Below, piece by piece: positions 34,780 to 53,112 of a stretch of 64,000 nt of DNA. The translations under genes and the position numbers were made by a program. How positions within the stretch are numbered: position 1 is the first letter of the stretch; every line of letters starts with the position of its first letter. Origin of the DNA: a virus. Under the pieces are notes generated by a model that saw only the letters and a program-made list of their open reading frames with translations, did no database searches and was not told the DNA's origin. Where the stretch lies: the IMG/VR virus record IMGVR_UViG_3300027759_000051; one strand, written 5' to 3'.

Positions 34780-34901
34780 ACGTGATTAGCGTTATCACTT
34801 GCACGTACAACACACCACCCGATGTACTAGCCCGAACATGGGCATCCCTTAAAGCACAGACCTTCACCGATTGGGAATGGGTGGTCAATCCTGTTTTTTA
34901 A
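34773..34901 (+). pseudogene. Truncated GT2 glycosyltransferase N-terminus
   Basis: MVNVISVITCTYNTPPDVLARTWASLKAQTFTDWEWVV then NPVF*; breaks off where the opposite-strand gene ends. Confidence 0.75.
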
Positions 34902-35952
34902 TTTCATACCATCCAGCACCCCAAAGTGTCTGTAGACGGTAGAAATACTTTTGATACATTAAGCCAACAGCTTCTAATCCGTAGCGTCCCTTGGAGTACT
35001 CGCTAATTGCTTTACGGTCAAGAGTTTTGACGTTCTCGGCGGCATCTATAAACTCTTGCAAAGTGTGACACCTAAACCCTGTCATGCCGTCAATAACTGT
35101 TTCCGTGAATGCGCCCCAGTCAGTAGAGATAACTGGTGAACCACAGGCCATCGCCTCAACAGCTACCGTGCCAAAAGGCTCCACGTAAAGAGTGGGGGTG
35201 AATGTAGCGATAGCCCCACCCATTAGTTTGGCGCGTTCTTCTGTACCCACTACTCCGACGTATTCACCGTATTCGGGTGGAGTTCCCTGCCCGGCGATGA
35301 GCAGGCGCTTCCCGAGCAATTTACACACATCTACGGCGATCTGATACCCCTTGCGGTCAATCAGACGACCAATGTACAGATAGTAATCTTCTGGCGTTTC
35401 TTGTAGCGGAAAGTCTTTAACGTCAATGTAGCTCGGTATTACCGTGTCATAGAACTTACCATCGAGTGCGTGAGGGTCGGTTACCTTAGACCCGTAGCAA
35501 GAGTGCATCCATGCGTAGGACTCAAATACTTTGTAGTCCGCAAATGACCCGCCGTACCCAATGCCAAACTCTACGCTAATCGCTTGTGGAAATGCGTCGG
35601 CAATTGGCTTAGAGGCATAGCCAGCGATTAAGCAAATAAAGTCTTTTTTTTCAAATCTGTTGCCAATTTCTCTAATGGCATTTCCGTTAAAAGTCCTCCA
35701 ATGGGGAAGGTTCCAGTCAAAAGAAGCTGCTGAGTAGTGATTGTTGCCTACAGCGCCTAAGCGCTGTTCTTCAGTAATGCATGTAATGTGCTCGTCACAT
35801 GGTGCCTCATTGAACTCACCTCCATAGAGGAATACGGCATGCCCGAGATCCTTCATCATGATGCAGAACTTGCGGACTTTCTCCGTGTAGGCACAAGCCG
35901 TGAAGTCTTCAGTCGTGTTTGTGTGCGGGAGGGAGACTACATGAAAACGCAT
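34885..35952 (-). CDS. GT4-family glycosyltransferase
   Basis: YLYIGRLIDRKG, EPFGTVAVEAMACGSPVISTDWG. Confidence 0.92.
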   Translation of the reverse strand: MRFHVVSLPHTNTTEDFTACAYTEKVRKFCIMMKDLGHAVFLYGGEFNEAPCDEHITCITEEQRLGAVGNNHYSAASFDWNLPHWRTFNGNAIREIGNRFEKKDFICLIAGYASKPIADAFPQAISVEFGIGYGGSFADYKVFESYAWMHSCYGSKVTDPHALDGKFYDTVIPSYIDVKDFPLQETPEDYYLYIGRLIDRKGYQIAVDVCKLLGKRLLIAGQGTPPEYGEYVGVVGTEERAKLMGGAIATFTPTLYVEPFGTVAVEAMACGSPVISTDWGAFTETVIDGMTGFRCHTLQEFIDAAENVKTLDRKAISEYSKGRYGLEAVGLMYQKYFYRLQTLWGAGWYEIKKQD

Positions 35953-35954
35953 AT

Positions 35955-36563
35955 TTATTTCTCCACGGCAAGAACTATGCTGTCAACGCAGGAATGGACT
36001 TTTGATGTTGCGTACATCTCGTACTTTAGCCCTGTTTTATCAAAGTAGTCTTTTAATTCAGAAGAACGTTGCTCGTAGCTGTCCATGTTGTAGTTATCAA
36101 AAAGAATATCTTCAATCATATAAATTCCGCCATCTTCAACAATGTCAAACATATTTTCAAACGTCTTGATTGTCAGTTCAACGATATGCGAAGCGTCGTC
36201 AAGAACAATGTCAACTTTTTTTCCAATTAGCTTCTTTAGATGCTGCAGAGTATTTGGATTTTTTTGATCAATGAAATACGTTTTGATTTTGCCGCGCTCA
36301 AAGAGAAGGTGCTCTTTTATATCTGCTCCATAGATATCAGCGTCCGGAAACGTCTCCGCCCAGGCAAATAAGTCAGTGTGCTGATTGTCGCCTAAGAACA
36401 AACCTATTTCCAGAAATGATTTTGGAGATCTATGCGCAAGAAGGTGCGAATACACTTCCTCATAGCCGTGGTGAGAAGACTTGTCTGAACCAGCAGCAGT
36501 AAACTCTAAAGAAAGTTTTTTAGCAAAGTTTTCGTCGTATGAGTATTCTTTATGTAGTTTCAC
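35955..36563 (-). CDS. SAM-dependent methyltransferase (sugar O-methyltransferase-like)
   Basis: GSDK..HHGY..VY, FLEIG, YGADI, DIVLDDASH, GGIYMIED. Start probably GTG 36563. Confidence 0.8.
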   Translation of the reverse strand: MKLHKEYSYDENFAKKLSLEFTAAGSDKSSHHGYEEVYSHLLAHRSPKSFLEIGLFLGDNQHTDLFAWAETFPDADIYGADIKEHLLFERGKIKTYFIDQKNPNTLQHLKKLIGKKVDIVLDDASHIVELTIKTFENMFDIVEDGGIYMIEDILFDNYNMDSYEQRSSELKDYFDKTGLKYEMYATSKVHSCVDSIVLAVEK

Positions 36564-36564
36564 T

Positions 36565-36951
36565 TTAGAACCACCAGAAGTGTTTAAGGATTGAAAGTGA
36601 TGCAAGAACAACCCAAGCGCAGTTAAACAAAATAATTGTTGGGAGCGTTTTACGAGTTGAAGTCCAAATAAGAGCGACGCTCGAGATAATGGCAAAGATA
36701 TAGAGCCACCAGAACTGCTTGCCGAGAAGTAGGCCGGGAAAAATAATTGCAATCTTGGTAGTAAATCCCCATGCTTCTACTGTATTGACACGGTTCCAAT
36801 ACTTCTTGGAACTCATTGTTTTGACGGCGTTGAATACCTTGTTGTTAATTTTTCGTTTCTTCATGTTGGCCGTTTTGTAAGTTTCCCCAAGCAAGTATGA
36901 CAAGTCTTCAGCTGCAACATTTTTATTAGTTTTCGCCATCCGCTTCATCAT
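36565..36951 (-). CDS. Small membrane protein
   Basis: About three hydrophobic segments in the C-terminal half. Confidence 0.7.
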   Translation of the reverse strand: MMKRMAKTNKNVAAEDLSYLLGETYKTANMKKRKINNKVFNAVKTMSSKKYWNRVNTVEAWGFTTKIAIIFPGLLLGKQFWWLYIFAIISSVALIWTSTRKTLPTIILFNCAWVVLASLSILKHFWWF

Positions 36952-37702
36952 TTTCCCTTCGTTTCTGTCTGTAGAACAACGTGGGATCTTTTGCTTTCAT
37001 CAAAAGTTTTCCTGTTCCGCCGTTTTTGACTAAATTAAAAAGAGATTTATTACCCCAAACCAGTGTTTCAATTTCTGCGTCTCTTCTTATTGGAAGCATG
37101 TGCTGGAGCGGTGTTCCTTCCGGAATCATGAACTCTTCTCTGGATCTAATATTTAGCACAATATGAATTTGATGATAATAGTCTGAATGTACAATTCCGG
37201 GAACAACCGTGTATCGAGGGTCTGGCTCGCTAAGAACTGGCAGTGCAAGCAAAGATGTACCCTTTTCCGTTACGTACCTCCACGGGGATACGAGTTTTGG
37301 AAAATGAGATTCTGGAAGTTCTCTATCTTTCGTAAAAGGACACTCCCCTGTCATTTGAAAAGGAAATCCTTCAACTTGAAATCTAACTTCTTCGTCAAAC
37401 TGATCCATTTTGAGGTCAAAAGTTTTACCATCCACAGACGGTCTGACATAGATATTTGACCATGCAGGGATAGTAAAACCGCTTGTCATGTAGTCGTAGT
37501 TTCCTTGGCATCTCCTAAAAGAATCTTTACCTTTGGGAAGTTTATGAAACCAAGATGGAAGGTTGCTTTTATTAAGGTATGGAGGGTTTTTTAATAAGCG
37601 ATTATCCATCGGAATGATAATCACTTCACCTTTTTTAGCCTTTGGAATGTCAGAATGAAATAAAAATTGTTTATATTTGTATTTGTCGGAGCGCTTCCGC
37701 AT
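36926..37702 (-). CDS. DUF6065-like protein
   Basis: PSWF...RRC...YMTSGFTIP, KLVSPW..VTEKGTSLL, PGIVHSD, IPEGTPL. Confidence 0.6.
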   Translation of the reverse strand: MRKRSDKYKYKQFLFHSDIPKAKKGEVIIIPMDNRLLKNPPYLNKSNLPSWFHKLPKGKDSFRRCQGNYDYMTSGFTIPAWSNIYVRPSVDGKTFDLKMDQFDEEVRFQVEGFPFQMTGECPFTKDRELPESHFPKLVSPWRYVTEKGTSLLALPVLSEPDPRYTVVPGIVHSDYYHQIHIVLNIRSREEFMIPEGTPLQHMLPIRRDAEIETLVWGNKSLFNLVKNGGTGKLLMKAKDPTLFYRQKRRENDEADGEN

Positions 37703-39134
37703 GATCTACCTTTGTGTGGCTTGATTGAAACAATTTTGCTTTGAAAACTTCTTGTTTTGTTTCTTCTTTTATGTTGTACATAGAAATCATGCGTTCTGCT
37801 GCGTCTCTAGATAAAAGCTTTTGACCTTGAGCAACATGGTAAAGATGCGGCATTATGAACATTTCGTAGTTATTGGTCTCCACATCGTAATATGAGGGAG
37901 ATCTTTCTTGCCACAAGTCCAACAATTCTTGAAGATAATCTGGCACCTTCATCTCCTTTTGAGCAAGCCACATAGGAGAGTCTGTTCTGTCAGAAATATA
38001 GTGAAGAGATATCATTGCGAGAATATTCTCCATCATTGTGTTCATTTTTTTATTAAAATTCTTTTGAATAGAAACACAGCCTGGTTTATAGCTTTGCAAG
38101 TTTTGCACTAAGCACCTTACTTGCTGAATTGTTCCGCCAATAGATGTTGCCTCAATAGGTTCTACGAACGCAGAAGCCAGACCAATAGCAACGCAGTTTT
38201 TGATCCACATTTCTTTTAAGTGACCTGGATCAAATTTAATTGACTTAGCAGGCTCTACTTGAAAGCCAAGAAGCTTTGAAACCTCGTCAATTGCTTGCGT
38301 CTCAGTGCAGTGGCGAGAAGAGTACACGTAACCGTTTCCACGTCGCTCTTGGGTGGGTATTTCCCAGACCCAACCACTAGACATGGCTCTTGCTCGAGTG
38401 TACGGTCTTATTTCCCCTGATGGATCCGATTCTGTAGGGAAAGCTATTGCTGAATCCATCTGTAGGTACTCAGAAAAACTATTCCATTCCTGATGCTTCA
38501 TTCTAGATATCAGCACTCTCTTCATTCCCGAAGCATCTATCCAAAAATCTGAAGCAATCTTTGTTTTGTCATCTAGGAGTACCGACTCAATGTCACCAGT
38601 TGCGTTGTTGCAAGACACGTCTATTACGTCTTTATCAATAAAAACAACGCCTCTTTCGGCTGCAATACGAGTAAGGTAATTGTTCAACTTAAACGTATCA
38701 AAATGAAATTGATTCACCAATCCATGAGGATTCGCTGAACTCACTTTGTTTTCAATCATTGACCTTGGGCCAATATTTTCTGTAAGAGTTTTCCCTTGGG
38801 CAACAAGACCGTTGTAAAGAGAATACGTTTCAAAATAAGTTAATCTTTCAGCAGAACTTACGCTGTGGAAGTAGTCGGGGGTGTGGTTTGTCCAGTTTTC
38901 AAACCTGATTCCGTTTTTGTGAGTACCAGCCGTTTCGTTTAGAACCTCAACAACAGGAAGTTCACACATCTCCATAAAAGTTCGCCAATGCTCAGTTGAG
39001 CCCTCTCCAACGCCAATAATCCCAATTTTGGAAGAGTAGATGATATTTATCTCAATCAAGGGAAAGGCTTTTTTCAAGATTAAAGAAGCAATGAGTCCAG
39101 CGGTTCCGCTGCCAACAATTGTTATTTTCTTCAT
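37671..39134 (-). CDS. Flavin-dependent tryptophan-halogenase-family protein (PrnA-like)
   Basis: GSGTAG, IGVGEGST, Lys in GTHKNGIRFENW, WIDASG, WVWEIP (WxWxIP), FVEPIEATSI. Confidence 0.92.
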   Translation of the reverse strand: MKKITIVGSGTAGLIASLILKKAFPLIEINIIYSSKIGIIGVGEGSTEHWRTFMEMCELPVVEVLNETAGTHKNGIRFENWTNHTPDYFHSVSSAERLTYFETYSLYNGLVAQGKTLTENIGPRSMIENKVSSANPHGLVNQFHFDTFKLNNYLTRIAAERGVVFIDKDVIDVSCNNATGDIESVLLDDKTKIASDFWIDASGMKRVLISRMKHQEWNSFSEYLQMDSAIAFPTESDPSGEIRPYTRARAMSSGWVWEIPTQERRGNGYVYSSRHCTETQAIDEVSKLLGFQVEPAKSIKFDPGHLKEMWIKNCVAIGLASAFVEPIEATSIGGTIQQVRCLVQNLQSYKPGCVSIQKNFNKKMNTMMENILAMISLHYISDRTDSPMWLAQKEMKVPDYLQELLDLWQERSPSYYDVETNNYEMFIMPHLYHVAQGQKLLSRDAAERMISMYNIKEETKQEVFKAKLFQSSHTKVDHAEALRQIQI

Positions 39135-40234
39135 TCTGTGCAGAATTTCTTTCTTATGGTGTTTACGATGCTCACGTTACCAAAGTTCACCATCGCGGGT
39201 GAGTCCATTCCAACATTTTTTCCTGAGATAGCTTCTTCAAAAGCTTCTGTTCCTAAAACCAAAGATGCTTGGTACATTTCTTCATCAATAGTTTTCAGCT
39301 CTTCTTCTAGGATGGAACTGTTTATTGTGAATTTAGTAGGGCTATGCAGCAATAGTGAATTAAGAGTTCTGTACCTAAGCCTGCTTTTGATCCACTTTTT
39401 TACCTTTTCTGGAAGAACAACATTTTCTCTATTGTAAATTCTGCAATCTTCTGGGTTGGTGAGATAGCTGTACACCGACATGTTGATCTGATTGTTCCTG
39501 ATTTCATCAAGAACATCCTCTGTCATACCTGTCTTTTCAATGAAGATATTTGCCTTAACTGCCTGCGGTTCTGTGTTCAAGAATGGTTCCTTTGAAACAC
39601 CGCTCCACTCCTCGATCATCTTGAGGCATCCGAATAAAGAACTTGACCATGAAGTAACCACTGGGTAGTCACCAAAACCTAAACCATTCTTGCTCGTGAC
39701 CACGACTAAATGGCAATCACCAAGCACAGAAAGGATTGTGGTAAAACTTGTAACATTTCTGTCATTGACTTTCTCTTTATCAAAAGCATAAGAATGAACG
39801 CCATCTGCTGAGTTTACAAAACCTCTTGGACCGGTGGCATCTTTGTCGCAGCGCCTTTTCATGTCCATTCCTATTTTATTTTTATCTGACACCTCTAGGC
39901 TAGGGAAGTGGACTGAGTTGAAGAAAGCGATAGTTCCGTTGTGGACGTAGTCAGTCGCCTCTATATACTCGTAGATGTTCTCATAGCATTGGTAGTCAAT
40001 CAATTCTTCTTTTGTTTCATTCTTTGCAATGTAGTTAAAATCTGTCCCTACTTCATTCATGCTTTTGAACGCAACAAGGATGCCAGAATCTGTAGTGTAT
40101 TTATCGTAATCAAGATACTCAATTAGGCCACCACTTGTGTACTGGTAGAGTTTGAAATCTTCAACAAATGTTGTCAAATAAAAAGATTTATAGTTAGACG
40201 GATCTATGTTATTGATATCTATCATGAGTACCAC
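39131..40234 (-). CDS. Hypothetical protein
   Basis: 367-aa ORF overlapping both neighbours; no family recognised. Confidence 0.7.
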   Translation of the reverse strand: MVLMIDINNIDPSNYKSFYLTTFVEDFKLYQYTSGGLIEYLDYDKYTTDSGILVAFKSMNEVGTDFNYIAKNETKEELIDYQCYENIYEYIEATDYVHNGTIAFFNSVHFPSLEVSDKNKIGMDMKRRCDKDATGPRGFVNSADGVHSYAFDKEKVNDRNVTSFTTILSVLGDCHLVVVTSKNGLGFGDYPVVTSWSSSLFGCLKMIEEWSGVSKEPFLNTEPQAVKANIFIEKTGMTEDVLDEIRNNQINMSVYSYLTNPEDCRIYNRENVVLPEKVKKWIKSRLRYRTLNSLLLHSPTKFTINSSILEEELKTIDEEMYQASLVLGTEAFEEAISGKNVGMDSPAMVNFGNVSIVNTIRKKFCTE

Positions 40235-40824
40235 GTAACTAAACTGTATTTAGTCCCATTCACTACTGGGTGAGCGATATGCGAGTAAGGGAAATTTGAT
40301 GGAAATAAGACAACAGAGTTTTTTTCTAGTTTAATGGTTGTATTGAAATAAGGGAACTCAAGTTCTCCACCTGAAAACCCGTCAGACAGGCTGGCAACCA
40401 TACTTAGGACTCTTTGATTCTCTGGAGCGTGGTCGTGGTGCATGTGATACTCCGCACCGTCTTCATATTTCAACAAAGAGTAGCCAGAGTCAGAATTGAG
40501 AACAAGACTCCATGAATTACGATAGTCCCAAATGCATTCATCAATTGGCTTTATAATGTCATTCACGAGTTTCTCATGCAGGTTTTTTATGTCTACGTTT
40601 TCTGTTTCTGCCAGAAAAATGTTCACGTCTAGCCCCAAAGAACTTCTGTACTCGTTTCCGTACTCACTTCCCTCGGTTGTTGATGGCTGCCACTCTACGT
40701 AAGGCCATTCTTTTTTTGTTTCATCCTCAATCAGACCAATAACGTCGCCTACATCAATTGCGTCTTTGTATATCCAAAGGCATGGAACTTTTTCATTTTT
40801 TTCAATAAGCATAAAAATCTCCAA
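40222..40824 (-). CDS. 2OG-Fe(II) oxygenase (prolyl-4-hydroxylase-like)
   Basis: LLKY....Y..HHD, GGELEF, VLFPSNFPYSH..HPV..GTKYSLVTW. Confidence 0.9.
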   Translation of the reverse strand: MEIFMLIEKNEKVPCLWIYKDAIDVGDVIGLIEDETKKEWPYVEWQPSTTEGSEYGNEYRSSLGLDVNIFLAETENVDIKNLHEKLVNDIIKPIDECIWDYRNSWSLVLNSDSGYSLLKYEDGAEYHMHHDHAPENQRVLSMVASLSDGFSGGELEFPYFNTTIKLEKNSVVLFPSNFPYSHIAHPVVNGTKYSLVTWYS

Positions 40825-41215
40825 TCTGCTCTACGCACTCATTAACACGAATTTCAAAAATATTTTTCCCAATTTTATACTCATTGAATGAAAATCTAAT
40901 TTTATGGTTTTCTTCGTAAATGCTTTTTATTAGAATGCCATTTACGAAAAGTTTTGTATTGTTTTTTAGGATAAAAAATTCATTTTCGTAGACCATTCCC
41001 TGATGAGCTCCAAAAACAATCCTCTCATGCAATATGGAAAAATGAATAACTCTTGGAATGTTCAGTAGCTGAACCTTACTCCTATTGAATTCTAATTTTT
41101 CTGTATTAGAATTGTCACCTATAAGAATATTTCTCTTATATTTAACAGACAATTCTTTAGCTTCTTGAATCATTGAATCATTTGGGCAATAGATAATTCT
41201 ATCCAAACTAGCCAA
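40802..41215 (-). CDS. Hypothetical protein
   Basis: 137-aa ORF overlapping neighbours. Confidence 0.6.
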   Translation of the reverse strand: MASLDRIIYCPNDSMIQEAKELSVKYKRNILIGDNSNTEKLEFNRSKVQLLNIPRVIHFSILHERIVFGAHQGMVYENEFFILKNNTKLFVNGILIKSIYEENHKIRFSFNEYKIGKNIFEIRVNECVEQIGDFYAY

Positions 41216-41441
41216 GGCTCTCTATTTTTGTATTTATGAAGTTAATTTTATTAACGAGATTGGTTACACTTCTGTAGTTAGCCTGAAGAGAAGCGTCTTC
41301 TGGCTCCTCATATGTGTCAAGAGAAAAAGTTTCGGGGTCAATACCCAGGTAAGACAACATGGCGTACAGCTCCGACAAGAATCCAGTCAGTGTTTGATTA
41401 CAAATCTCTTTTTTTCTTTCATTGGTTATTTGAAATTCCAT
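41208..41441 (-). CDS. Small hypothetical protein
   Basis: 77 aa, SD AGGAG, directly after the His-rich fibre gene. Confidence 0.7.
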   Translation of the reverse strand: MEFQITNERKKEICNQTLTGFLSELYAMLSYLGIDPETFSLDTYEEPEDASLQANYRSVTNLVNKINFINTKIESLG

Positions 41442-41448
41442 AATTCTC

Positions 41449-42993
41449 CTATTGATTTAAGACTAAAGCCAACAACCCAGATGAGGCACTCGTTCCGCCT
41501 GTTACGCTTGTTGTTGGCAAACCAGTGCTTGTTTCCGTTACGATTACTATACCGCCTCCGCCGCCTGACTTCCCAGCAGTTCCAGCAGTTGTTGATCCCG
41601 CAGCACCTGCAGTTCCTGCAGCACCTCCAATACCTCCAGCGCCCGCAGTTCCTCCAGCACCCCCAGGGTACGAAGCATGACCAACGTGACTTACCGTTCC
41701 AGCAGGTCTAACCCAGTATTGCTGATGGTCGTTGTCGTGGTGAGTTCTTGTATAATAGTCGTGAACTGTACCTTTTGAGTAGTGGGAATAGTGGGGGTAA
41801 TGTAGCACGGTATTGTAATTTCCTCCGTGGTGACTTCCTGTATGTGCTTGAGCAGTGCCACTATGATTGCGATGATTTGGCGATGTGTGAGGTATTGAGT
41901 TTTGGAGACTATAACTAGCAGTAGGTTCAGCATTATGATGGTCGCCATAGTGGTGGGGATAGTGGCCAGCAGCGTGAGACGGGTGGGCAGTATTCCCGTG
42001 AGTGGCGGTAGCACTATTATGCACGTGCCTGTACGTATGGCCGTGCAGGGGATGATACGCGTATGGAGTATGACTACCATGCGGTAAGTTCGGTGATGCT
42101 ACTGATCTATGATGCCCTGTGCCGTCGTAATGAGCGGCGCCATCGGCGTAATGAGCAAGCGATGCTGTTCCGCCAGAAGTTCCAGCAGATCCGTTTGCTC
42201 CAGGGGTTCCAGCAGAACCAGCAGAACCAGCGGATCCAGTTGCTGACGCACCACCCGCTGTGCCTGTTTCTCCATTTGCAACAATGCTTCCTGTTCCTGT
42301 TATCGCTCTGGCCACAACAACAACAACTCCGCCTCCCCTACCACCAACACCTGCAGCAGCAGCGGGGGGAGTTGTTCCAGGGGTTCCAGGAGTTCCGCTT
42401 GTTCCAGAAGATCCATCGGTTCCAGCGGTTCCTGGTGCTCCACTAGTTCCTGGTGTTTTAACCAAGTGACCAGCACCTCCAGCACCTCCAAGGGTTCTAG
42501 GAGTTGCTGCTCCGCCTGCTCCGCCAGATGTTGCGGGAGTGACTGTTCCCGCAGCGCCAGAAACACCTCCTGCTCCACCAGTAAGTGGTCGCACCGCTCC
42601 AGCATTAGAAACATCTGCAGCCCTGATTACGCTTTCTATGCTATTTAAGATATAGCTGTTTGCAAGAGTAAGGCTTGATGAGTTTTGAGCATTTCCGCCT
42701 ATTGAGAAAGTTGGAACTACTCCTACGCCAGAAGTACCGGGTACCGTTCCTGGAGACACTGTTACACCGGAACCAATACCTAGTGTTCCATTAACGGTCA
42801 ATGTGCCTTTTACAAAAACTCTAAACCCATTAGGATTCAAGGTTATTCCCGAGTCAATGGTTAAGTTGTTGTAGTACATATCTTCTGACAAAGATGTGTT
42901 CACAGATATGATGATGTTGCCGTCTAGTCCTGATCCATAGACTGCGTCATTACCAAGACTTGAGACACTTTGTTCGTATCTAGATATAGCCAT
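41449..42993 (-). CDS. Gly-rich virion/fibre protein with His/Tyr-rich insert
   Basis: N-domain paralogous to 42996..43787; GxxG repeats flank a ~165-aa segment with ~34 His. Confidence 0.85.
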   Translation of the reverse strand: MAISRYEQSVSSLGNDAVYGSGLDGNIIISVNTSLSEDMYYNNLTIDSGITLNPNGFRVFVKGTLTVNGTLGIGSGVTVSPGTVPGTSGVGVVPTFSIGGNAQNSSSLTLANSYILNSIESVIRAADVSNAGAVRPLTGGAGGVSGAAGTVTPATSGGAGGAATPRTLGGAGGAGHLVKTPGTSGAPGTAGTDGSSGTSGTPGTPGTTPPAAAAGVGGRGGGVVVVVARAITGTGSIVANGETGTAGGASATGSAGSAGSAGTPGANGSAGTSGGTASLAHYADGAAHYDGTGHHRSVASPNLPHGSHTPYAYHPLHGHTYRHVHNSATATHGNTAHPSHAAGHYPHHYGDHHNAEPTASYSLQNSIPHTSPNHRNHSGTAQAHTGSHHGGNYNTVLHYPHYSHYSKGTVHDYYTRTHHDNDHQQYWVRPAGTVSHVGHASYPGGAGGTAGAGGIGGAAGTAGAAGSTTAGTAGKSGGGGGIVIVTETSTGLPTTSVTGGTSASSGLLALVLNQ

Positions 42994-42995
42994 TT

Positions 42996-43787
42996 TTACA
43001 CCTGTTGAATATAAATTGAGGTTCCTGCGTTTGCGCCTGTTACATCAGTAGAGATGGATGCAGGAAGTGCAGAAGCAGACGATACAACGATAATGACACC
43101 GCCTCCACCGGGGGATGTTGCAGGGGCTTTGATATAACCAGTTCCAGAAGATGGTCCAGAAATGTAACGAGCAGCAAGGATTACTACTCCTCCACCAGCC
43201 TGAGTAGTTCCTCCAGCGCCTCCACGCAGGAATGTGGGACCACCAGAAGCAGTAACTGAGTAACCAGTAACTGCTTGCTGTGCAACTCTAAAGTACTTGG
43301 TTCCGCCCTGAGCGGCGGTTGGGGCTGTTGCCGTGTATGTGGCTGCTGCGTTTCCACCAAGACTGCATGTAACAGATGTTCCTACGCTTCCCGTAGTAGA
43401 ACCGCCTTGGGCAATAGACCCAGCAGTAGAAAATCCAGCAGTGTACCCAATAACTGAGTTGTTGTTTAACTTTAAAATACCTTTTACAAAAACACGGTAA
43501 CCATTAGGTTCTAAGCGCACGCCTGCGTTAATGGTTAGATCATTAAAGTAAACATCTTGTGTTAGGGAGTAAACGCTTGATGAGGGAACAATAGTTGTGG
43601 AGTCACCCAATGTAAGAGTGGTGGTTCCATCTAATGTCTTATCACCGTCGTAACCGTTTCCGTAAACAATGTCTGGGCTTTCGTTGTAGTAGGAAACCCA
43701 GTATGAGCCGTCCCATTGCCAACTTTTAGAGCCAACAGTATAAACCTGATATTGATAAGGAGAAGCAGGAAAAGTAATTGCTGGCAT
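42996..43787 (-). CDS. Gly-rich virion/fibre protein
   Basis: AITFPASP...WQWDGSYW N-module; VYGNGYDG...NDLTINAGVRLEPNGYRVFVKG; GGGVVIL. Confidence 0.8.
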   Translation of the reverse strand: MPAITFPASPYQYQVYTVGSKSWQWDGSYWVSYYNESPDIVYGNGYDGDKTLDGTTTLTLGDSTTIVPSSSVYSLTQDVYFNDLTINAGVRLEPNGYRVFVKGILKLNNNSVIGYTAGFSTAGSIAQGGSTTGSVGTSVTCSLGGNAAATYTATAPTAAQGGTKYFRVAQQAVTGYSVTASGGPTFLRGGAGGTTQAGGGVVILAARYISGPSSGTGYIKAPATSPGGGGVIIVVSSASALPASISTDVTGANAGTSIYIQQV

Positions 43788-43789
43788 GA

Positions 43790-46321
<2,532 letters not shown>

Positions 46322-46334
46322 TCAGGGCTAATTG

Positions 46335-48233
46335 TTAGCCGGTTACTACGATTGCGTATTCACCTGCGGTAATTGTACCAAGAAGTGTAACCGTTACGGT
46401 GTCGGCGTTCGTACGAACAACATCACCAACTACTGTAGCTCCACTTGATACCTCATAAATCTGAACAATGACGTCAGACGAGTTGAATAAGTGAGTGACC
46501 GTAGTTGTGGAAGTGCTACCAATGCTTGCAGCACAAGTCTGTTTTGCAATACGAGCAAGGGTTGAGGCAGTTGTAGTTGCCGTTCCAACTGAGGTTTTGA
46601 TACCAAGGTTCGTGCGAGCACTTGCTGCAGTTGTAGCACCAGTACCACCATTTGCGACGGCAATGCTTGTAGCGTTCCAAGTACCACTGGTAAGCGTTCC
46701 AACCGATGTAAGGCTTGAGGTGGTTACTCCTGAGCCAAGAACAGAGGCGCTGAGAACATCAGTTCCACCAATCTTGAAAGTCTTGCCATTGGCAATATCA
46801 AAATTTTCTGATGCAGTCCAAGAGTCTGTTGCATCAACCCAGTTGAGCGTTTTGTCCGTAGCGCCCTTAAGCGTAATACCGCCGCCATCTGCACCTGCAT
46901 CTGTTGGACTTGTAACTGCACCAAGAACAAGGTTTTTGTCGTCAATCGTTATTTCTGTTGAGTTAATTGTGGTTGTTGTACCATTAACCGTCAGGTCGCC
47001 CGAGAGCACAAGGGATGTACCCGTAGCAGCACCAATGTTTGGCGTTACGAGTGTTGGGGTATTGGCAAATACGAGTGCACCAGTACCGGTTTCGTCTGAA
47101 ATTACTCCAGCAAGTTCCGATGAAGAGGTTGCTGCAAAAGCTGAAAGCTTATTATTGGTAAGCGCTACAGTACCAGTTGCGTCCGGAAGAGTGACTGTAC
47201 GGTCAGCAGTTGGGTCGGTGACTGCAAGGGTTGTCTCAAAAGAGTCAGCGGTTGCGCCTTCAAAAATTACTCCAGAACCATCAACTATGGGAGAAGTAAG
47301 CGTCTTGTTTATGAGAGTCTGAGTGTTTGTAGTTCCAACTACCGCGCCCGTTGCACCGTGAGCTTCCGTTGCACCCGTGTGAGTTGTAAGGTTTCCTGCA
47401 ACAACAGATGCTGAACCGTAGGCATCAAAAGTGTTTGCCGTTACTGAGATTGCGCCAGTTCCGTCGTTATATGTAAGACCTGTTCCAACTGCATTTCCAA
47501 CAGCATCCTGCGCTGCTTCATTAAAGTCTGTGACCGCACTCGCTGTGATAGCAATTGTTGCATTACTCGCTGCGGTTAAACGACCTTGAGCATCAACCGT
47601 AAATGTTCCAGCTACTGAAGCAGAGCCATACGAACCCGCTGTAACTGCGGTATTGTCAAGGTTGATTGTGAGAGTATCTGTTGCACTAGCAACAGACGAG
47701 AGACCTGTTCCACCAGAAATCGTAAGCGTATCGTTTAAGCTAACTGTCTGGCTTGACCCACTATCTCCAGCAACAGTTATTGAACCCGATACTGCGCTGA
47801 CTGCGCCGTCAACATAGGATTTAGTTGCGGCATGAGCATTTTCGGTCGGAGTGGCTACCTTGATATTGCCTGCGCCGTCTCTAATTACGAGCTTACTAGC
47901 TGTAGCCTCTGAAGTGGCATCATCAAGTTTCGTCTTGTCCGTAGAGGACATAACACCGTCTGCGCTCGTAGTGGCGCGGTTTGGCGTTACTGTTACCTGT
48001 CCGTCAGACTCACTTATTGAGAGTGCTACGGATGAAGAACCACCAGTTGCGACGCCATTTAAGAATGTTTTCCAGGCTCCACCATTGTATACCCGCAATG
48101 TATGGGTTGTTGTATTGTAGTATACCCAACCCTCAAATAAACCAGTAGAAGGGTCTGCTGACAACTTCTCAAAAGTAGATTTAATTAACTGATTTTGGTT
48201 TAAATCAATGTTTGTTAGAAATTTTTGCGCCAT
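46335..48233 (-). CDS. Tail fibre/virion structural protein
   Basis: Thr/Ala/Ser/Gly-rich; DGVMSSTDKTKLD, AATKSYVD, GDLTVNGTTTTINS, NGGTGATTAASARTNLG fibre motifs. Confidence 0.82.
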   Translation of the reverse strand: MAQKFLTNIDLNQNQLIKSTFEKLSADPSTGLFEGWVYYNTTTHTLRVYNGGAWKTFLNGVATGGSSSVALSISESDGQVTVTPNRATTSADGVMSSTDKTKLDDATSEATASKLVIRDGAGNIKVATPTENAHAATKSYVDGAVSAVSGSITVAGDSGSSQTVSLNDTLTISGGTGLSSVASATDTLTINLDNTAVTAGSYGSASVAGTFTVDAQGRLTAASNATIAITASAVTDFNEAAQDAVGNAVGTGLTYNDGTGAISVTANTFDAYGSASVVAGNLTTHTGATEAHGATGAVVGTTNTQTLINKTLTSPIVDGSGVIFEGATADSFETTLAVTDPTADRTVTLPDATGTVALTNNKLSAFAATSSSELAGVISDETGTGALVFANTPTLVTPNIGAATGTSLVLSGDLTVNGTTTTINSTEITIDDKNLVLGAVTSPTDAGADGGGITLKGATDKTLNWVDATDSWTASENFDIANGKTFKIGGTDVLSASVLGSGVTTSSLTSVGTLTSGTWNATSIAVANGGTGATTAASARTNLGIKTSVGTATTTASTLARIAKQTCAASIGSTSTTTVTHLFNSSDVIVQIYEVSSGATVVGDVVRTNADTVTVTLLGTITAGEYAIVVTG

Positions 48234-48245
48234 TGGCCCTCGTCC

Positions 48246-48554
48246 TTACGTGAGATATGCGTACCCTGAAAACGCCGAAGTAAAAAAAACTCTTATCTGC
48301 GTGTTGCTATCATATTTTACCTCACCGATTACGACCGTATCTGCACTATCCACAACAACTATGGATGGTTTCCCCCCCAACGAGTGGGTTATTGTCCAAG
48401 TCGCCGAGGCGGCCCCCTGCGAATGAACGTGCCTTCTGGTATTTCCAGCTGACCCCCCAAGCCTTACTACAACCTGATTTGCTGCATCTTGGTTAATTAT
48501 TATCGTGTTTGGGGTATCTTCGTTTACTACTACGTTGTTAGGGACATTGCTCAT
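48246..48554 (-). CDS. Small virion structural protein
   Basis: HSQGAASATWTITHSLG..PSIVVVDS...FSGYAYL. Confidence 0.7.
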   Translation of the reverse strand: MSNVPNNVVVNEDTPNTIIINQDAANQVVVRLGGSAGNTRRHVHSQGAASATWTITHSLGGKPSIVVVDSADTVVIGEVKYDSNTQIRVFFTSAFSGYAYLT

Positions 48555-48922
48555 CTTGTCACCTGACGCGAAAGTGTCACGGTGCCCTTGAGTATCCTAG
48601 AAATTACCCCAGAATTATCTTCTATTTCAATGTCGTAGACGCCATCTGTCTCGACGGTGGCAGTATCTGCTGGCAGAAGATTAAGCCTAATCGCATTTGA
48701 TACTGATGCTGATTGAATTTCTATCCTGCCATTTGATGTAGTAAGCGTAATCTGGGGGGTTGCGGAGTCAATTGTCCTTCTTATCTGCATACTCGCACTG
48801 TACCCAGTTAAGTCAAAAGGCAGGAAAACCGTCAAATCATCTGGGTCGGGATACTCAATCTCAATTAGCCTACTGAAAGTTGCACCCTGTTCTAGTGTAA
48901 AGTTGTAAACTCCAGCAATCAT
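48551..48922 (-). CDS. Virion structural protein (Ig/BppU-like)
   Basis: YNFTLEQGATF...DLTGYSASMQIR...GVYDIEI...RILKGTVTLS..VTR. Confidence 0.7.
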   Translation of the reverse strand: MIAGVYNFTLEQGATFSRLIEIEYPDPDDLTVFLPFDLTGYSASMQIRRTIDSATPQITLTTSNGRIEIQSASVSNAIRLNLLPADTATVETDGVYDIEIEDNSGVISRILKGTVTLSRQVTR

Positions 48923-49102: not shown

Positions 49103-50260
49103 ATGCATAAAATTGAAACCATAAAAAATGGTTACACCCCAAAAAAATCAGACCTTCCCACTATTGGGTATCTAACTACAGACTGGGCGTGGGGAACCGA
49201 CCCGCTGCAGCCAAATGGATGTGCTTGGTATAGATGCGTACTTCCGGGGATGGAACTAGAAAAAAGGGGATGGAGAGCTGGTGTCGGCGTTCCTGGTTTT
49301 AGTGAAAAAGATGGATTCGGGATGGTTGCCGAAGCGGGCAAGGCAATACATGGCTGGGACATAATTGTTTTTAAATTGATAATGCAAAAAGACGCACTTA
49401 ACGGACTGACGAGGGCGCAGGATCTAGGGCAAAAGATAGTTGTGGATGTTGACGACTTCTTTGATGGTTTATCACCATCAAACAGGGCATACGAAGCTAC
49501 TGACCCTGAAAAAAATTTAGAAAACAATAGAGAAATATACGCAGAAATAATAAGAAGATCATTTGCTGTAATATGTTCAACTCAATTCCTTTTTGATTAC
49601 TACTCAAAGATACATAAAAATGTGTTCCTAGTAAGAAACGGAATAGATTTACACAGATATAAGTCTCTCCATTACCTGAATAAGAAAAGGCAGACGGCAA
49701 GGCCGAATAGAGCAACCATAGGATGGGTTGGGGCAACTCCATGGAGGTCTGGAGACCTTGAGTTACTTTCTGGATTCATGGGTAACTATATATTGGCTAA
49801 TAATAAAAATGTTAGATTTCACCATTCTGGACACTTGCCTAATTCACCTTCCGCTGCTGATCAACTGGGAATAGATCAAAAATTTGTAACGACAAGTTAC
49901 CTTGTTCCCATTGGCGAGTACCCTAATTTATTTAATGGTATTGACATAGGAATAGTTCCATTGACCGACATACCATTCAATGATGCTAAGTCGTTCATAA
50001 AAGGACTTGAATATGCTGCGTCCGGGATACCTTTCATTTCTTCTCCGTCTGCAGAATACAAGTTTCTGTATGACGCAGGGGTGGGAAGAATTGCATCAAC
50101 CCAAGAAGAGTGGATTTACCATTTTAACGAACTTAGGGATTTGGCGATTCGCAAAGATGAAGCACAAATAAATATTGAGAAACTAGAAGATTTTTCAATT
50201 CAAAAACGCGGTGACGACTGGGATGCAACAATGCGTTTTATACTTGAGCAAAGCATGTAG
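49103..50260 (+). CDS. GT-B fold glycosyltransferase
   Basis: GCAWYRC..P, VVDVDD, IGWVG, DIGIVPL...FNDAKSFIKGLEYAASGIP. Confidence 0.88.
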   Translation: MHKIETIKNGYTPKKSDLPTIGYLTTDWAWGTDPLQPNGCAWYRCVLPGMELEKRGWRAGVGVPGFSEKDGFGMVAEAGKAIHGWDIIVFKLIMQKDALNGLTRAQDLGQKIVVDVDDFFDGLSPSNRAYEATDPEKNLENNREIYAEIIRRSFAVICSTQFLFDYYSKIHKNVFLVRNGIDLHRYKSLHYLNKKRQTARPNRATIGWVGATPWRSGDLELLSGFMGNYILANNKNVRFHHSGHLPNSPSAADQLGIDQKFVTTSYLVPIGEYPNLFNGIDIGIVPLTDIPFNDAKSFIKGLEYAASGIPFISSPSAEYKFLYDAGVGRIASTQEEWIYHFNELRDLAIRKDEAQINIEKLEDFSIQKRGDDWDATMRFILEQSM

Positions 50261-50309
50261 CAGAGTCTGTGGATAAGGATATAACCACTTATTTTATGAA
50301 AGAAAAAAT

Positions 50310-50891
50310 ATGATTTCAGACACTGTTTCCGTTTGTATACCCTCTATCCCAAAACGCTCTAATTTACTTACATCTCGTGTGCTACCAAGTGTTTTTTCGC
50401 AAACATACCCCGTATCTGAAATTTGCATTTCACTCGACTTTAAAAAAGAGGGTGCATGGGAAAATCGTAATAATGCTATAAAGATGGCAAATAGTGAGTG
50501 GATTGCTTTTTTGGACGATGATGACGAGTTTCAACCTCATCATGTTGAAACCTTGCTTGCTGCGGCACGTGAAAATCAATCGGATATTACTTGGGGCTGG
50601 TTTGATGTCATCGGAGGTTCTGACCCATTCCCTATGAATAGGGGTCGTCAATGGGACATAAACGACCCCCACATCTTTCCCATTACTTGTATTGTTCGCC
50701 GTTCATTAATTTTAGATTCAAAGGCTGTGTTTATGCCAGAAAAAAGCAATATAGGTGCGTGGGGAATTCAAGATTTTCCATTTTGGAAAAGCATTTATGA
50801 TGCAGGGGGAAAGTTCTTTGGAATTCCAGATATCACATGGAATTGGCATCACCACGGCGCAAACACTTCTGGATTGCCAAATCGTTGGTAG
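50310..50891 (+). CDS. GT2 glycosyltransferase
   Basis: VSVCIPS, RNNAI, WIAFLDDDD. Confidence 0.88.
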   Translation: MISDTVSVCIPSIPKRSNLLTSRVLPSVFSQTYPVSEICISLDFKKEGAWENRNNAIKMANSEWIAFLDDDDEFQPHHVETLLAAARENQSDITWGWFDVIGGSDPFPMNRGRQWDINDPHIFPITCIVRRSLILDSKAVFMPEKSNIGAWGIQDFPFWKSIYDAGGKFFGIPDITWNWHHHGANTSGLPNRW

Positions 50892-50931
50892 TCTGTCAGC
50901 AAATTAATTAGAGTTTAGAGTAAGGAAAAAA

Positions 50932-51600
50932 ATGTCGGAAATGACCATACTCGTTCCATCTCGTGGACGACCCGAAAATATAATTCGCCTAATGGACGCA
51001 TGGGGTGCGACAACTGTGCGCGACACACGTCTGCTCGTGCTCGTTGACGATGACGACTCAAAACTTGACGACTACCTTGCTATTCCCAATATTGACATAC
51101 AGGTTGGGCCACGCCTACGGATTGGCGGAACCCTTAATGTTGTTGCTCCAGAAATAGCAAAAATCTCACGAAACATTGGGTTTATGGGGGACGACCACTT
51201 GCCTCGCACCAAAGGGTGGGATGAGGCGTTTATTAACGAACTAGACAAACTTGAAGTAGGGGTGGTTTACGGAAACGACCTTGCTCATGGCGTTGGATTA
51301 GCCACATCGGTTGCAATGACATCCAATATTGTCAACACCCTGGGGTACATATGTGTCCCAGGAAGCATTCACCTATTCTTGGACAACTTTTGGATGGAAC
51401 TTGGGCGTGGAACAAACATCACATATTTTAATGATGTGATTATTGAACACGTGCATCCTCATTTTCAAAAAGCACTTTCAGACAACACTTATACCGAAGC
51501 AAACAGCCCAGAGGTATGGGGTGCCGATGAAATAACATTCAATAATTATGTCGCTACTCAATTACAAGATGACCTACAGAAACTGAGAACCCTAAAATGA
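50932..51600 (+). CDS. GT2-like glycosyltransferase
   Basis: ILVPSRGRP, VDDDD, FMGDDH, HLFLDN, IEHVHP. Confidence 0.8.
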   Translation: MSEMTILVPSRGRPENIIRLMDAWGATTVRDTRLLVLVDDDDSKLDDYLAIPNIDIQVGPRLRIGGTLNVVAPEIAKISRNIGFMGDDHLPRTKGWDEAFINELDKLEVGVVYGNDLAHGVGLATSVAMTSNIVNTLGYICVPGSIHLFLDNFWMELGRGTNITYFNDVIIEHVHPHFQKALSDNTYTEANSPEVWGADEITFNNYVATQLQDDLQKLRTLK

Positions 51601-52184
51601 GAGAAGATAGACTTTTCCCAATAGACACTATTCCAGAGTATTGCACTGCCGAATGGTATCTAGACCGCGATATTGCACCTCATGTTGATGAAGAAATGCA
51701 CCGTCCTCGCTTAGACACCGCAGCAAGATTTGCTATGTCTGTCTGGTCGCCAGAGTTAACAGTTGTTGACTTGGGTGCTGGTGACGGTGGCCTTTTGTCG
51801 CTACTAACAGAAATACCCAAAGACCAAAAATGGGGTTACGATTTGCAACCATCAAACGTTGCCGGAGCAGTAAATAGAAATCAAGACGTTCGTTACGGAA
51901 ACGTATTTGACTCAATTGACTGGGCGGATATTGCCATTGCTACAGAAATGATTGAGCATTTAGTAGGACCACACCATTTTGTTAACATGGTTAGTCAAAA
52001 AAGCAAGTATTTGATTGCTAGTTCTCCGTGGACAGAAACTATTGATGGCCACTACGGATATCACACTTGGGCATGGGACGTCGAGGGATACGCTCGAATG
52101 CTCGAATTGAATGGATGGAAAGTTATTAGCCACGAAACGACTGGCATGTTCCAAGTAGCGCTATGTGAATCTTTAAACGCATGA
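51597..52184 (+). CDS. Class I SAM-dependent methyltransferase
   Basis: VVDLGAGDGGL, GYDL, TEMIEHL. Confidence 0.85.
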   Translation: MREDRLFPIDTIPEYCTAEWYLDRDIAPHVDEEMHRPRLDTAARFAMSVWSPELTVVDLGAGDGGLLSLLTEIPKDQKWGYDLQPSNVAGAVNRNQDVRYGNVFDSIDWADIAIATEMIEHLVGPHHFVNMVSQKSKYLIASSPWTETIDGHYGYHTWAWDVEGYARMLELNGWKVISHETTGMFQVALCESLNA

Positions 52185-53059
52185 AAATTCTAATTACAGG
52201 AGATGCTGGTTTTGTTGGACGCGAATTTCACCGTCAACTAGAAGGCCACGATATTACTGGCGTTGATATCGTTAATGGTATTGACGCAAGAGACTTTTTT
52301 GCAAAGGACGATACCAAGTTTGACCTAGTAGTTCACCTAGCAGCAATAGTGGGCGGGAGAGCAACAATTGAAGGTCAGCCACTCAAGGTGGCAACAGACT
52401 TAGCAATAGATTCCGATATGTTTCAGTGGGCACTTAGGACAAAGCCAAAGAATGTTGTTTACTATTCATCGTCAGCGGCTTACCCAATACACCTACAAGA
52501 ATATGGAAGCACTCATAAATTAAAAGAATCAGATATTAATCTAGACGACGTCCGTCTCCCTGATTACACGTATGGTTGGGCAAAGTTAACTGGCGAAATC
52601 CTTGCTAAATATGCTCAAGAAGCTGGCTTAAGAGTTCATGTCTTCAGACCGTTCTCCGGATATGGAGAAACACAAGATATGACATATCCTTTCCCGTCAT
52701 TTATTCATAGGGCTGTAAATAAGTACAATCCATTTCAAATATGGGGAACAGGGAATCAAGTAAGAGATTTTATACACATAAGCGATGTCGTGTCTGGAAC
52801 GTTAGAGGCTGTTAAAAACGATATACAAGGTCCAGTCAATCTTGGTATAGGCAGACCGATATCATTCATAGAGTTTGCAAAAATTGCTTCATCTATTACT
52901 GGATACGAGCCAGACATCCAAACTGATTCATCAGCCCCAGAAGGAGTTGCGTACAGGGTTTGTGACCCAGAGAAATTTCTATCCTTTTACCAGCCAAAAG
53001 TTTCATTTGAAGATGGAATTGAGATGGCGATAAAACATAAATTTAAACATGATTTTTAA
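52181..53059 (+). CDS. NAD-dependent epimerase/dehydratase
   Basis: ITGDAGFVG, VHLAA, SSSAAY, YGWAK (YxxxK), RDFIH. Confidence 0.92.
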   Translation: MKILITGDAGFVGREFHRQLEGHDITGVDIVNGIDARDFFAKDDTKFDLVVHLAAIVGGRATIEGQPLKVATDLAIDSDMFQWALRTKPKNVVYYSSSAAYPIHLQEYGSTHKLKESDINLDDVRLPDYTYGWAKLTGEILAKYAQEAGLRVHVFRPFSGYGETQDMTYPFPSFIHRAVNKYNPFQIWGTGNQVRDFIHISDVVSGTLEAVKNDIQGPVNLGIGRPISFIEFAKIASSITGYEPDIQTDSSAPEGVAYRVCDPEKFLSFYQPKVSFEDGIEMAIKHKFKHDF

Positions 53060-53112
53060 GTATGTAAAGAATTTTATGTTTCCTAAAAACTAGTGCAGAA
53101 CAAGAGGCTGAG

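Follow-up and report, generated by a model that had tools for sequence, protein, structure and literature searches.

A conserved oxygenase and halogenase block beside a histidine-rich fibre-type protein in an uncultured myovirus

Main

The 64,000-nucleotide stretch of IMG/VR virus record IMGVR_UViG_3300027759_000051 that was analysed here (hereafter the window) is a contig of an uncultured, non-T4-like myovirus. From 48922 to 34885 it carries a single array of minus-strand genes, in which overlapping or abutting open reading frames (ORFs) lead from tail-fibre genes into genes for a prolyl-4-hydroxylase (P4H)-type 2-oxoglutarate (2OG)-Fe(II) oxygenase, a flavin-dependent halogenase and a dUTPase-fold protein encoded behind the halogenase (hereafter the partner). 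Megablast of the region against GenBank phages gave zero matches. Among relatives retrieved from IMG/VR, these three genes form a conserved block with two paralogous fibre-type genes, one of which encodes a His-rich protein, and we tentatively discuss the block as a means by which the phage may modify its own fibre-type proteins.

The gene order given in an initial annotation of this DNA was borne out: all ORFs that it listed lie where it placed them, all on the minus strand, and the run does pass from the fibre genes into the enzyme genes through overlaps and small gaps. The spacing between genes is at most 7 nucleotides (nt) from 42996 to 34885. A terminator scan of the run found nothing convincing, with a single weak terminator-like site inside the short paralogue gene; promoter and terminator scans together yielded fewer sites than shuffled sequence did, and revealed no sub-operon structure.

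A short and a long fibre-type paralogue

The short paralogue (42996–43787, minus strand, as are all genes of the run) has 263 amino acids (aa) and no His; its alignment reveals a Gly-rich scaffold with GGGVV-type strands. The long paralogue (41449–42993), our candidate substrate, is a Gly/His/Tyr-rich protein of 514 aa with 35 His, 21 Tyr and 1 Trp. Alignments give the two proteins a common scaffold, which consists of a conserved N-domain and two GGGVV-type strands. In the first half of the long paralogue the N-domain is followed by a G-X-Y arm, a GGGVVVVVA strand and another G-X-Y arm; the second half comprises a hypervariable His/Tyr-rich insert, a further G-X-Y arm and a GGGGGIVIV strand. 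The long paralogue thereby exceeds the 263-aa scaffold by three G-X-Y arms and by the insert, which holds most of its His and Tyr residues. It also contains eight Pro-Gly sites, four G-x-P-G sites and, in a count by eye, about three HxH motifs among its 35 His.

The same difference in composition recurs in related viral contigs, in which long paralogues have 10–62 His (median 38, n = 86 distinct sequences) and short paralogues 0–5 (median 1, n = 88 distinct). The insert of long paralogues cannot be aligned between lineages, and in some it contains HNPxGH or HPGNPF repeats. The domain of the short paralogue belongs to a large family, with 646 clusters at 90% identity and 1,947 representatives at 50%. 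Longer proteins often end in this domain, as would suit a module of a fibre tip. A search of GenBank phages with the short paralogue (tblastn) gave zero matches. One giant protein of 1,764 aa (P0128) has five separate matches to the domain. The initial annotation had called the 514-aa protein a fibre, a label that we keep as a prediction from its position, its collagen-like G-X-Y arms and its paralogy with the product of 42996–43787.

A prolyl-hydroxylase-type oxygenase

The oxygenase gene (40222–40824; PF13640, E = 4.9e-14) encodes an iron-binding triad, H129, D131 and H182, that is invariant in 78 homologues, and the 2OG-binding base K192 is Lys in 72 of them and Arg in 6. We built a family profile from 32 homologues and searched it against solved proteins, accepting E values up to 0.01. 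Of the 15 matches, thirteen carry the name of a prolyl hydroxylase or of EGLN1, one is a PKHD-type hydroxylase and one is uncharacterised. The matches include the collagen-type P4H of Bacillus anthracis (3itq, 3e-13), the P4H of virus PBCV-1 (5c5t, 3e-11), human collagen P4H (7zsc, 4e-8) and 2jig (2e-7); Chlamydomonas P4H, P4H-TM, PHD2 and P3H1 are among the thirteen. Although the likeness of the single sequence to P4Hs is weak (E = 0.003), the profile places the oxygenase in the prolyl-4-hydroxylase family by homology. Because nearly all profile matches are protein-proline hydroxylases, they point to a protein substrate. The earlier suggestion that the enzyme acts on protein residues is thus supported as to its type, and hydroxylation itself is a prediction.

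The window oxygenase shares its HxD…H triad and its 2OG-binding Lys with the P4Hs of PBCV-1 (5c5t) and B. anthracis (3itq/5hv0), and, like these viral and bacterial enzymes, it is encoded next to collagen-like or Pro-rich proteins. It differs from them in that its hydroxylation is predicted from sequence and its pairwise similarity is weak. A P4H-like oxygenase has been found in the virion proteome of a cyanomyovirus (PMC12801897). Our literature search on phage prolyl hydroxylases found no phage enzyme that has been demonstrated to hydroxylate a fibre.

A halogenase with an unmatched C terminus

The halogenase (37671–39134; PF04820, E = 3e-104) has the GxGxxG motif, Lys73, GWVWEIP and FVEPIE. 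All 91 homologues examined retain G8, G10 and G13 of GSGTAG and W255 of GWVWEIP, and K73, E325 and E328 are invariant in the same set; K73, the equivalent of PrnA K79, aligns with a Lys of the 6y1w and 6nsd sequences. By these alignments, both the halogenase and the oxygenase retain their catalytic residues. The nearest solved structures are 6y1w and 6frl, followed by RebH and PrnA, and VirX1 is matched at 6e-45. Alignments to solved Trp halogenases stop near residues 409–418 and leave residues 417–487 unmatched, so that the Trp-binding C-terminal part is not recognisable. The PDB names of 6y1w and 6frl are generic (‘putative tryptophan halogenase / superfamily’), and we take these two enzymes and VirX1 to halogenate free small aromatics in vitro.

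VirX1 (PDB 6qgm), encoded by cyanophage Syn10, is of the same Pfam family as the window halogenase and likewise of viral origin, and its gene too is followed by a gene of the partner family. The two enzymes have about 28% identity, and the window enzyme is the shorter one, with the C-terminal stretch that lacks a match among solved Trp halogenases. VirX1 is trimeric, its active site is large and open, and its natural substrate is not known (PMC8407142).

A dUTPase-fold partner

The start of the 258-aa partner gene (36926–37702; phrog_7084) overlaps the stop of the halogenase gene by 32 nt. Its AlphaFold2 (AF2) model, with a predicted local distance difference test score (pLDDT) of 89, resembles dUTPases (VIA Z 9.8, root-mean-square deviation 2.9 over 127 residues); the top 22 rows of the fold search consist entirely of dUTPases, dCTP deaminases and herpesvirus proteins, and Foldseek gave 3e-4. 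Pfam dUTPase is matched by 10 of 37 sequences of the partner family, in which Cys65 is invariant and Cys121 nearly so. We considered the reading as a canonical dUTPase and rejected it. In the alignment of the family profile with dUTPase, ‘vvHtDfY’ falls on ‘vIDsDY’ and ‘plaHli’ on ‘riAQli’, so that the positions of the motif III Asp, which we take to be catalytic after Escherichia coli dUTPase, and of the motif IV Gln are both His. The model and the profile indicate a dUTPase fold with an altered active site.

The partner had been described as DUF6065-like. The window protein has no match to DUF6065 (PF19541) at E values up to 10, whereas eight of the 37 family members match it weakly and one relative (L171) does so with 28 bits, above the cut-off of 26.6; no paper that mentions DUF6065 was found in a literature search. 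The closer link is to gp43 of cyanophage Syn9, to which the window protein is homologous (hhalign 97.7%, E = 1e-12), and which has been named a novel dUTPase-fold protein with a conserved cysteine (Iyer et al. 2010, PMC2938197). Among GenBank phages the family occurs in just four lineages: Syn9, Syn10, P-TIM40 and S-RIM4. In cellular genomes it is found on only three contigs, all of them phage-like, within metagenome-assembled genomes (MAGs) and with the cassette described here. These contigs (L175, RHAS01000028.1; L176 and L177, PBNR01000003.1 and PBNR01000075.1) are binned in Actinomycetota and Gammaproteobacteria MAGs, which gives a weak and conflicting hint of the host.

The block is conserved across relatives

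We collected relatives by an IMG/VR search seeded with the halogenase (80 loci) and by a second search with the short paralogue alone as seed (284 relatives, of which 80 were fetched). A halogenase gene lies 0.3–3.9 kilobases (kb) from every distinct long paralogue with enough flanking sequence (83/83); the partner is within 4 kb of 81 of these and the oxygenase within 4 kb of 77. The co-occurrence of halogenase, oxygenase and partner beside a His-rich fibre-type gene, which the initial annotation had put forward as a check, is therefore a regular feature of these phages. The same linkage is seen at every locus of the short-paralogue-seeded set with at least 5 kb of downstream sequence.

The position of the halogenase varies. 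It is downstream on the same strand in 79 cases, upstream in 3 and inverted in 1, and at two loci (L176 and L177) the whole block of paralogue pair, oxygenase, halogenase and partner stands ahead of, not behind, the other fibre genes. In L055 (on the same contig as L142), a second short and long paralogue pair at 19307–21011 follows the GT4 glycosyltransferase gene, which indicates that the pair was duplicated around the cassette. Altogether the block is kept together in five arrangements, and linkage holds down to 43% halogenase identity. The short and long paralogues, oxygenase, halogenase and partner thus constitute a conserved block that has survived inversion and relocation.

Within this block, inheritance is mosaic. 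One relative (L001) is 68–94% identical to the window from the His-rich protein (72% in the insert) through the partner, and its short paralogue is 56% identical. Two others (L081 and L020) have short paralogues of 95–97% identity and collagen-like fibres of 86–94%, with a halogenase of only 53%. Across loci, the identities of halogenase and partner to the window co-vary (Spearman 0.63). The His-rich gene seems to contain a recombination boundary, with the N-domain grouping with the upstream fibre genes in L020 and L081 and the His-rich part with the enzymes in L001.

Relatives without the halogenase have His-poor inserts

Three relatives retain the paralogue pair, the P4H-type oxygenase and two or three copies of the partner family, and have no halogenase that we could find within 10 kb. 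Their long paralogues are poor in His, with 1 His and 38 Tyr in L168, 2 His and 36 Tyr in L171, and 2 His in L172. The partner copies are in tandem (L168, 15367–17416; L171, 12276–13489; L172, 16515–18405), and their presence at these loci suggests that the partner goes with the oxygenase and the fibre module and not with the halogenase alone. Beside them are PF11397 enzymes in L168 and L172, and a GT61 enzyme in L171. According to Pfam, PF11397 is the family of an N-acetylglucosamine (GlcNAc) transferase that acts on hydroxylated Skp1. A fourth relative (L184), laid out like L176 and L177, has a long paralogue with 8 His and 27 Cys; it keeps the oxygenase and lacks both halogenase and partner. 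Absence of the halogenase thus coincides with a His-poor insert in four of four cases, and the His-rich P0160 and P0264 are accompanied by a halogenase; the contigs found for P0232 and P0165 were left out of this comparison as too short. These His-poor, halogenase-less states may trace to very few evolutionary events.

Parallels in cyanophages and other systems

The enzyme trio itself is already known: it is that of the Syn9-type cluster (gp41–gp54), in which a halogenase gene is followed by the gene for the dUTPase-fold Cys protein and accompanied by one or more 2OG dioxygenases, as in the window. The partner gene lies directly behind the halogenase genes in Syn9, Syn10 and P-TIM40; S-RIM4 has no halogenase gene near its partner gene. 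Gly-rich, His-containing proteins are encoded directly upstream both in the Syn9-type cluster and in the window. All Gly_rich_2 (PF21722) genes of the Syn9 and P-TIM40 genomes are 0.5–2.4 kb upstream of the halogenases, a layout repeated in two marine viral contigs, and the cyanophage Gly_rich_2 proteins have His-rich stretches near their C termini. Homology between Gly_rich_2 and the Gly-rich family of the window was examined and discarded, with hhalign probabilities of only 0.8% and 2%. The parallel with Syn9 and P-TIM40 is, as far as these comparisons of sequence go, one of composition and position and not of descent: the upstream Gly/His protein of Syn9 belongs to an unrelated family, and the phage lineage also differs.

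Other cyanophages and a further phage vary in this respect. No PF21722 match was found in S-H38 or S-PM2; S-H38 has an unrelated ORF of 37% Gly about 4.6 kb upstream of its halogenase, and no Gly-rich ORF was found within 8 kb of the HTVC008M halogenase. The two cassettes also differ in size. Syn9 encodes two halogenases and ten oxygenases, compared with one of each in the window, where the oxygenase is of the P4H type; the window run has a single oxygenase and no tandem dioxygenase array, and some relatives have a second oxygenase. That dioxygenases act on co-encoded collagen-like and tail-collar proteins was already proposed in 2010, for bacterial operons (Iyer et al. 2010, PMC2938197). The present locus contributes the minimal, one-of-each cassette in a non-cyanophage lineage, together with the His-poor, halogenase-less relatives as controls.

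Two further comparisons can be drawn. The first is with the hydroxyproline glycosylation of Skp1, in which a prolyl hydroxylase is followed by a PF11397 GlcNAc transferase, and with the virion glycosylation of mycobacteriophages, reportedly described by Freeman et al. in 2023: the common points are the logic of a hydroxylase and then a glycosyltransferase on protein, and glycosyltransferase genes that adjoin structural genes. The relatives L168 and L172 pair the same type of oxygenase with PF11397 enzymes, as the Skp1 pathway does. The window has a GT4 and no PF11397 gene, and it is by analogy that the Skp1 logic is carried over to a phage fibre. The second comparison is with the clusters of ribosomally synthesized and post-translationally modified peptides (RiPPs), to which the layout had initially been likened. 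MibH is a flavin halogenase that acts on such a ribosomally made polypeptide and is encoded next to the gene of its substrate. The candidate substrate of the window is instead a 514-aa structural-type protein and not a leader-bearing precursor peptide, and Pfam, PHROG and NCBIfam scans of the cassette genes found no leader peptide, recognition element, protease or exporter. The likeness to a RiPP cluster is one of function, with no precursor of that kind found.

Possible functions of the run

We tentatively favour the view that the run is a late protein-tailoring module placed in the fibre operon, the likeliest targets of which are the neighbouring fibre-type proteins and chiefly the 514-aa paralogue. 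In the scheme that we envisage, the P4H-type enzyme would hydroxylate Pro residues of the fibre protein, either in its X-Pro-Gly and collagen-like arms or in its Pro-rich insert. Sugars would be added, possibly onto the new hydroxyls, by the GT4 and by the glycosyltransferases across the operon, and the halogenase, with the dUTPase-fold partner and reduced flavin supplied by the host, would halogenate Tyr, Trp or His in the insert. On the basis of gene context, such tailoring is plausible, most strongly for proline hydroxylation and glycosylation and less so for halogenation. Hydroxylation followed by glycosylation appears to be the best-supported sequence of events, because of the P4H family of the oxygenase, the Pro-Gly sites, the PF11397 enzymes in relatives, the glycosyltransferases on both flanks and the late-operon context. 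Of the three steps, hydroxylation seems best supported and halogenation weakest. Only the linkage pattern and the open, substrate-orphan nature of the halogenase clade suggest that the insert is halogenated. The complete scheme, in which the halogenase and the partner halogenate the His- and aromatic-rich insert of the phage’s own fibre-type protein, and this protein is also proline-hydroxylated and glycosylated, is doubtful on our assessment.

Several observations weigh against fibre tailoring. Identity to the window of the fibre N-domain is uncorrelated with that of the halogenase (Spearman 0.05), so that, as far as the N-terminal domain is concerned, the initial expectation of enzymes exchanged together with their fibre is not borne out; the His-rich part does not align between lineages. 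Descent by itself could account for linkage that is constant within one phage lineage. The His rule admits exceptions: in L177 a halogenase accompanies a long paralogue of only 8 His, in L184 a long paralogue with as many His goes without one, and Tyr-rich paralogues (36–38 Tyr) occur where the halogenase is missing. The expected dependence of the enzymes on fibre type is accordingly seen in the four His-poor relatives and broken by L177. In P-SSM2 both Gly_rich_2 genes are far from the halogenase, and none of the halogenases of P-SSM2, S-PM2 and HTVC008M has a Gly/His-rich neighbour. The partner family also occurs alone, with neither a halogenase nor a Gly-rich neighbour, in S-RIM4 (L167, 7800–8594) and in L181 (4394–5089). 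Flavin halogenases are known to act on indoles, phenols and pyrroles, and we know of none that has been reported to act on histidine. The place of the 514-aa protein in the virion is likewise a prediction. The proposal that the phage tailors its own fibre, the core of the initial annotation, thus gains from the conserved block, the protein-type oxygenase, the His-poor contrasts and the Syn9 and P-TIM40 parallel, and loses from the N-domain, L177 and the halogenases of P-SSM2, S-PM2 and HTVC008M.

A rather unlikely alternative is secondary metabolism. The enzymes would then produce or modify, inside infected cells, a small compound that derives from an amino acid and bears halogen and hydroxyl groups, and adjacency to the fibre would be incidental. 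The nearest solved relatives of the halogenase are generically named or, for VirX1, substrate-orphan, with free small aromatics as their in vitro substrates, and several cyanophage halogenases have no fibre-type neighbour. The Syn9 cluster of two halogenases, dUTPase-fold Cys protein and tandem dioxygenases, with the same enzyme trio, was itself read as secondary metabolism, and bacterial relatives are located in TonB-receptor/SapC loci (Iyer et al. 2010, PMC2938197). Against such a role, the oxygenase profile matches almost exclusively protein-proline hydroxylases, the block stays with the paralogue pair despite inversion and relocation, and PF11397, the family of the hydroxylated-Skp1 GlcNAc transferase, appears in two halogenase-less relatives. 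The ORFs that were scanned yielded no non-ribosomal peptide synthetase (NRPS), polyketide synthase (PKS), ATP-grasp or other enzyme that would form a scaffold. The initial statement that prnB/C/D, NRPS/PKS and flavin reductase genes are absent holds for the approximately 35 larger ORFs that were scanned.

It is unlikely, to a greater degree, that the target is another macromolecule late in infection, such as other virion proteins, host envelope proteins or glycans (in superinfection exclusion or lysis timing), or the 833-aa collagen-like fibre encoded upstream of the paralogue pair (43790–46291; PF01391 Collagen, 8e-37; tail fibre PHROGs down to 3e-73). P4H-type enzymes have a wide range of protein substrates, EF-Tu, Skp1 and HIF among them, and the window offers several collagen-like fibres, a second sugar island (49103–53694) and a strongly conserved membrane protein within the cassette. 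The 833-aa protein, however, has just two Pro-Gly sites among 50 Pro, and in L176 and L177 the block moves with the paralogue pair and not with the collagen-like fibre. In L001, it is the His-rich part that resembles the window together with the enzymes (68–94%), and the short paralogue does so less (56%).

We give little credence to the absence of any functional link, in which accessory genes would gather at an insertion hot spot at the end of the fibre module, and the His insert would be a metal- or receptor-binding tip. The T4 gp37 needle has HxH iron sites in a His-rich fibre tip that binds metal, and both the mosaic inheritance of L081 and L020 (short paralogue 95–97%, halogenase 53%) and the variable presence among relatives of the optional members (the 77-aa, 137-aa and 367-aa proteins, the methyltransferase and the GT4) would fit such a site. 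It is countered by the 83/83 linkage across five arrangements and down to 43% halogenase identity, by the loss of the halogenase with His-poor inserts in four of four cases, by the non-homologous parallel in Syn9 and P-TIM40, and by the presence of only about three HxH motifs (by eye) among the 35 His.

A role in DNA or nucleotide modification, with the halogenase and the dUTPase-fold protein handling a halogenated pyrimidine nucleotide and the oxygenase, methyltransferase and GT4 decorating bases, is very improbable: the dUTPase fold (Z 9.8), the Pfam dUTPase matches in 10 of 37 family members and the use of dNTPases, oxygenases and glycosyltransferases by DNA-hypermodifying phages are outweighed by the His residues at the partner’s catalytic-Asp and motif IV Gln positions, by an oxygenase of the P4H and not the TET/JBP or AlkB type, by the placement of the genes within a late structural operon, and by the lack of a kinase or thymidylate-synthase-like partner among the scanned ORFs.

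Many aquatic phages encode flavin halogenases, of which VirX1 has been studied as a biocatalyst; the natural substrates of these enzymes and the advantage that they bring to the virus are still sought. Our literature searches on viral halogenases and phage prolyl hydroxylases found no paper that names a fibre-type protein as the target of a viral halogenase, and the 514-aa protein is a concrete, if unproven, candidate for such a target. Halogenation of this protein, if it occurs, would be a first for a virion protein and would provide VirX1-type viral halogenases with a natural substrate class. More broadly, a fibre target would mean that phages furnish the apparatus with which they bind receptors with hydroxyl, sugar and halogen groups, and would open a new level at which host range and stability can vary; with any other target, the strictness of the linkage would still call for an explanation. 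The locus is a small clonable set of fibre-type protein, P4H-type oxygenase, halogenase and partner, with natural controls in the His-poor relatives.

Other genes of the run and its surroundings

Upstream of the collagen-like fibre gene, the fibre operon begins with a gene for a 123-aa protein (48551–48922; phrog_1084, weakly like L-shaped tail fibre assembly proteins), followed by genes for a 102-aa small protein (48246–48554) and a 632-aa fibre or virion structural protein (46335–48233; phrog_6002 virion structural protein, 8e-28; tail fibre phrog_38058). In related loci the 123-aa gene travels together with the 102-aa and 632-aa genes and the collagen-like fibre gene.

Between the long paralogue and the oxygenase are two small genes found in part of the related loci, for proteins of 77 aa (41208–41441) and 137 aa (40802–41215). 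The oxygenase gene is followed by that of an optional 367-aa protein (39131–40234), which has an N-terminal beta-sandwich and a helical C terminus. It has no match in Pfam, PHROG or NCBIfam and no usable match in an Atlas search; its AF2 model has a pLDDT of 77, and its best fold match reaches Z 4.9. Full-length homologues (alignment of at least 250 aa) occur in 31 of the 160 fetched loci, with shorter matches in a few more.

Behind the partner lies a gene for a hydrophobic, membrane-type protein of 128 aa (36565–36951), one of the two best-conserved genes of the run, with 70–93% identity where the halogenase has about 50% and the partner about 38%. It is followed by a methyltransferase-like gene (35955–36563; phrog_21658, 3e-14; PF13847, 7e-4, below the cut-off), which few relatives have. 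This gene was correctly assigned to the run, although its start had been set at TTG 36752; the most likely start is GTG 36563, one base past the stop of the membrane protein gene (36565–36567). The last gene of the run encodes the GT4 glycosyltransferase (34885–35952; PF00534, 3e-16; phrog_3408, 2e-89).

Glycosyltransferase genes flank the fibre operon on both sides, with the GT4 in the run and others in the sugar island at 49103–53694. This island is on the plus strand, divergent from the run, and encodes a GT-B-like protein, a GT2, two methyltransferases and an NAD-dependent epimerase/dehydratase; a PA14-domain protein (53731–55791) comes after it. Elsewhere in the window are genes for the portal (1591–3678), the large terminase (3915–5222) and the tail sheath (14508–15998). 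A plus-strand gene for a phosphoadenosine phosphosulfate (PAPS)-reductase-like protein (10347–11489; phrog_2302, 3e-74) lies after the packaging genes and ahead of the gene for the tail sheath.

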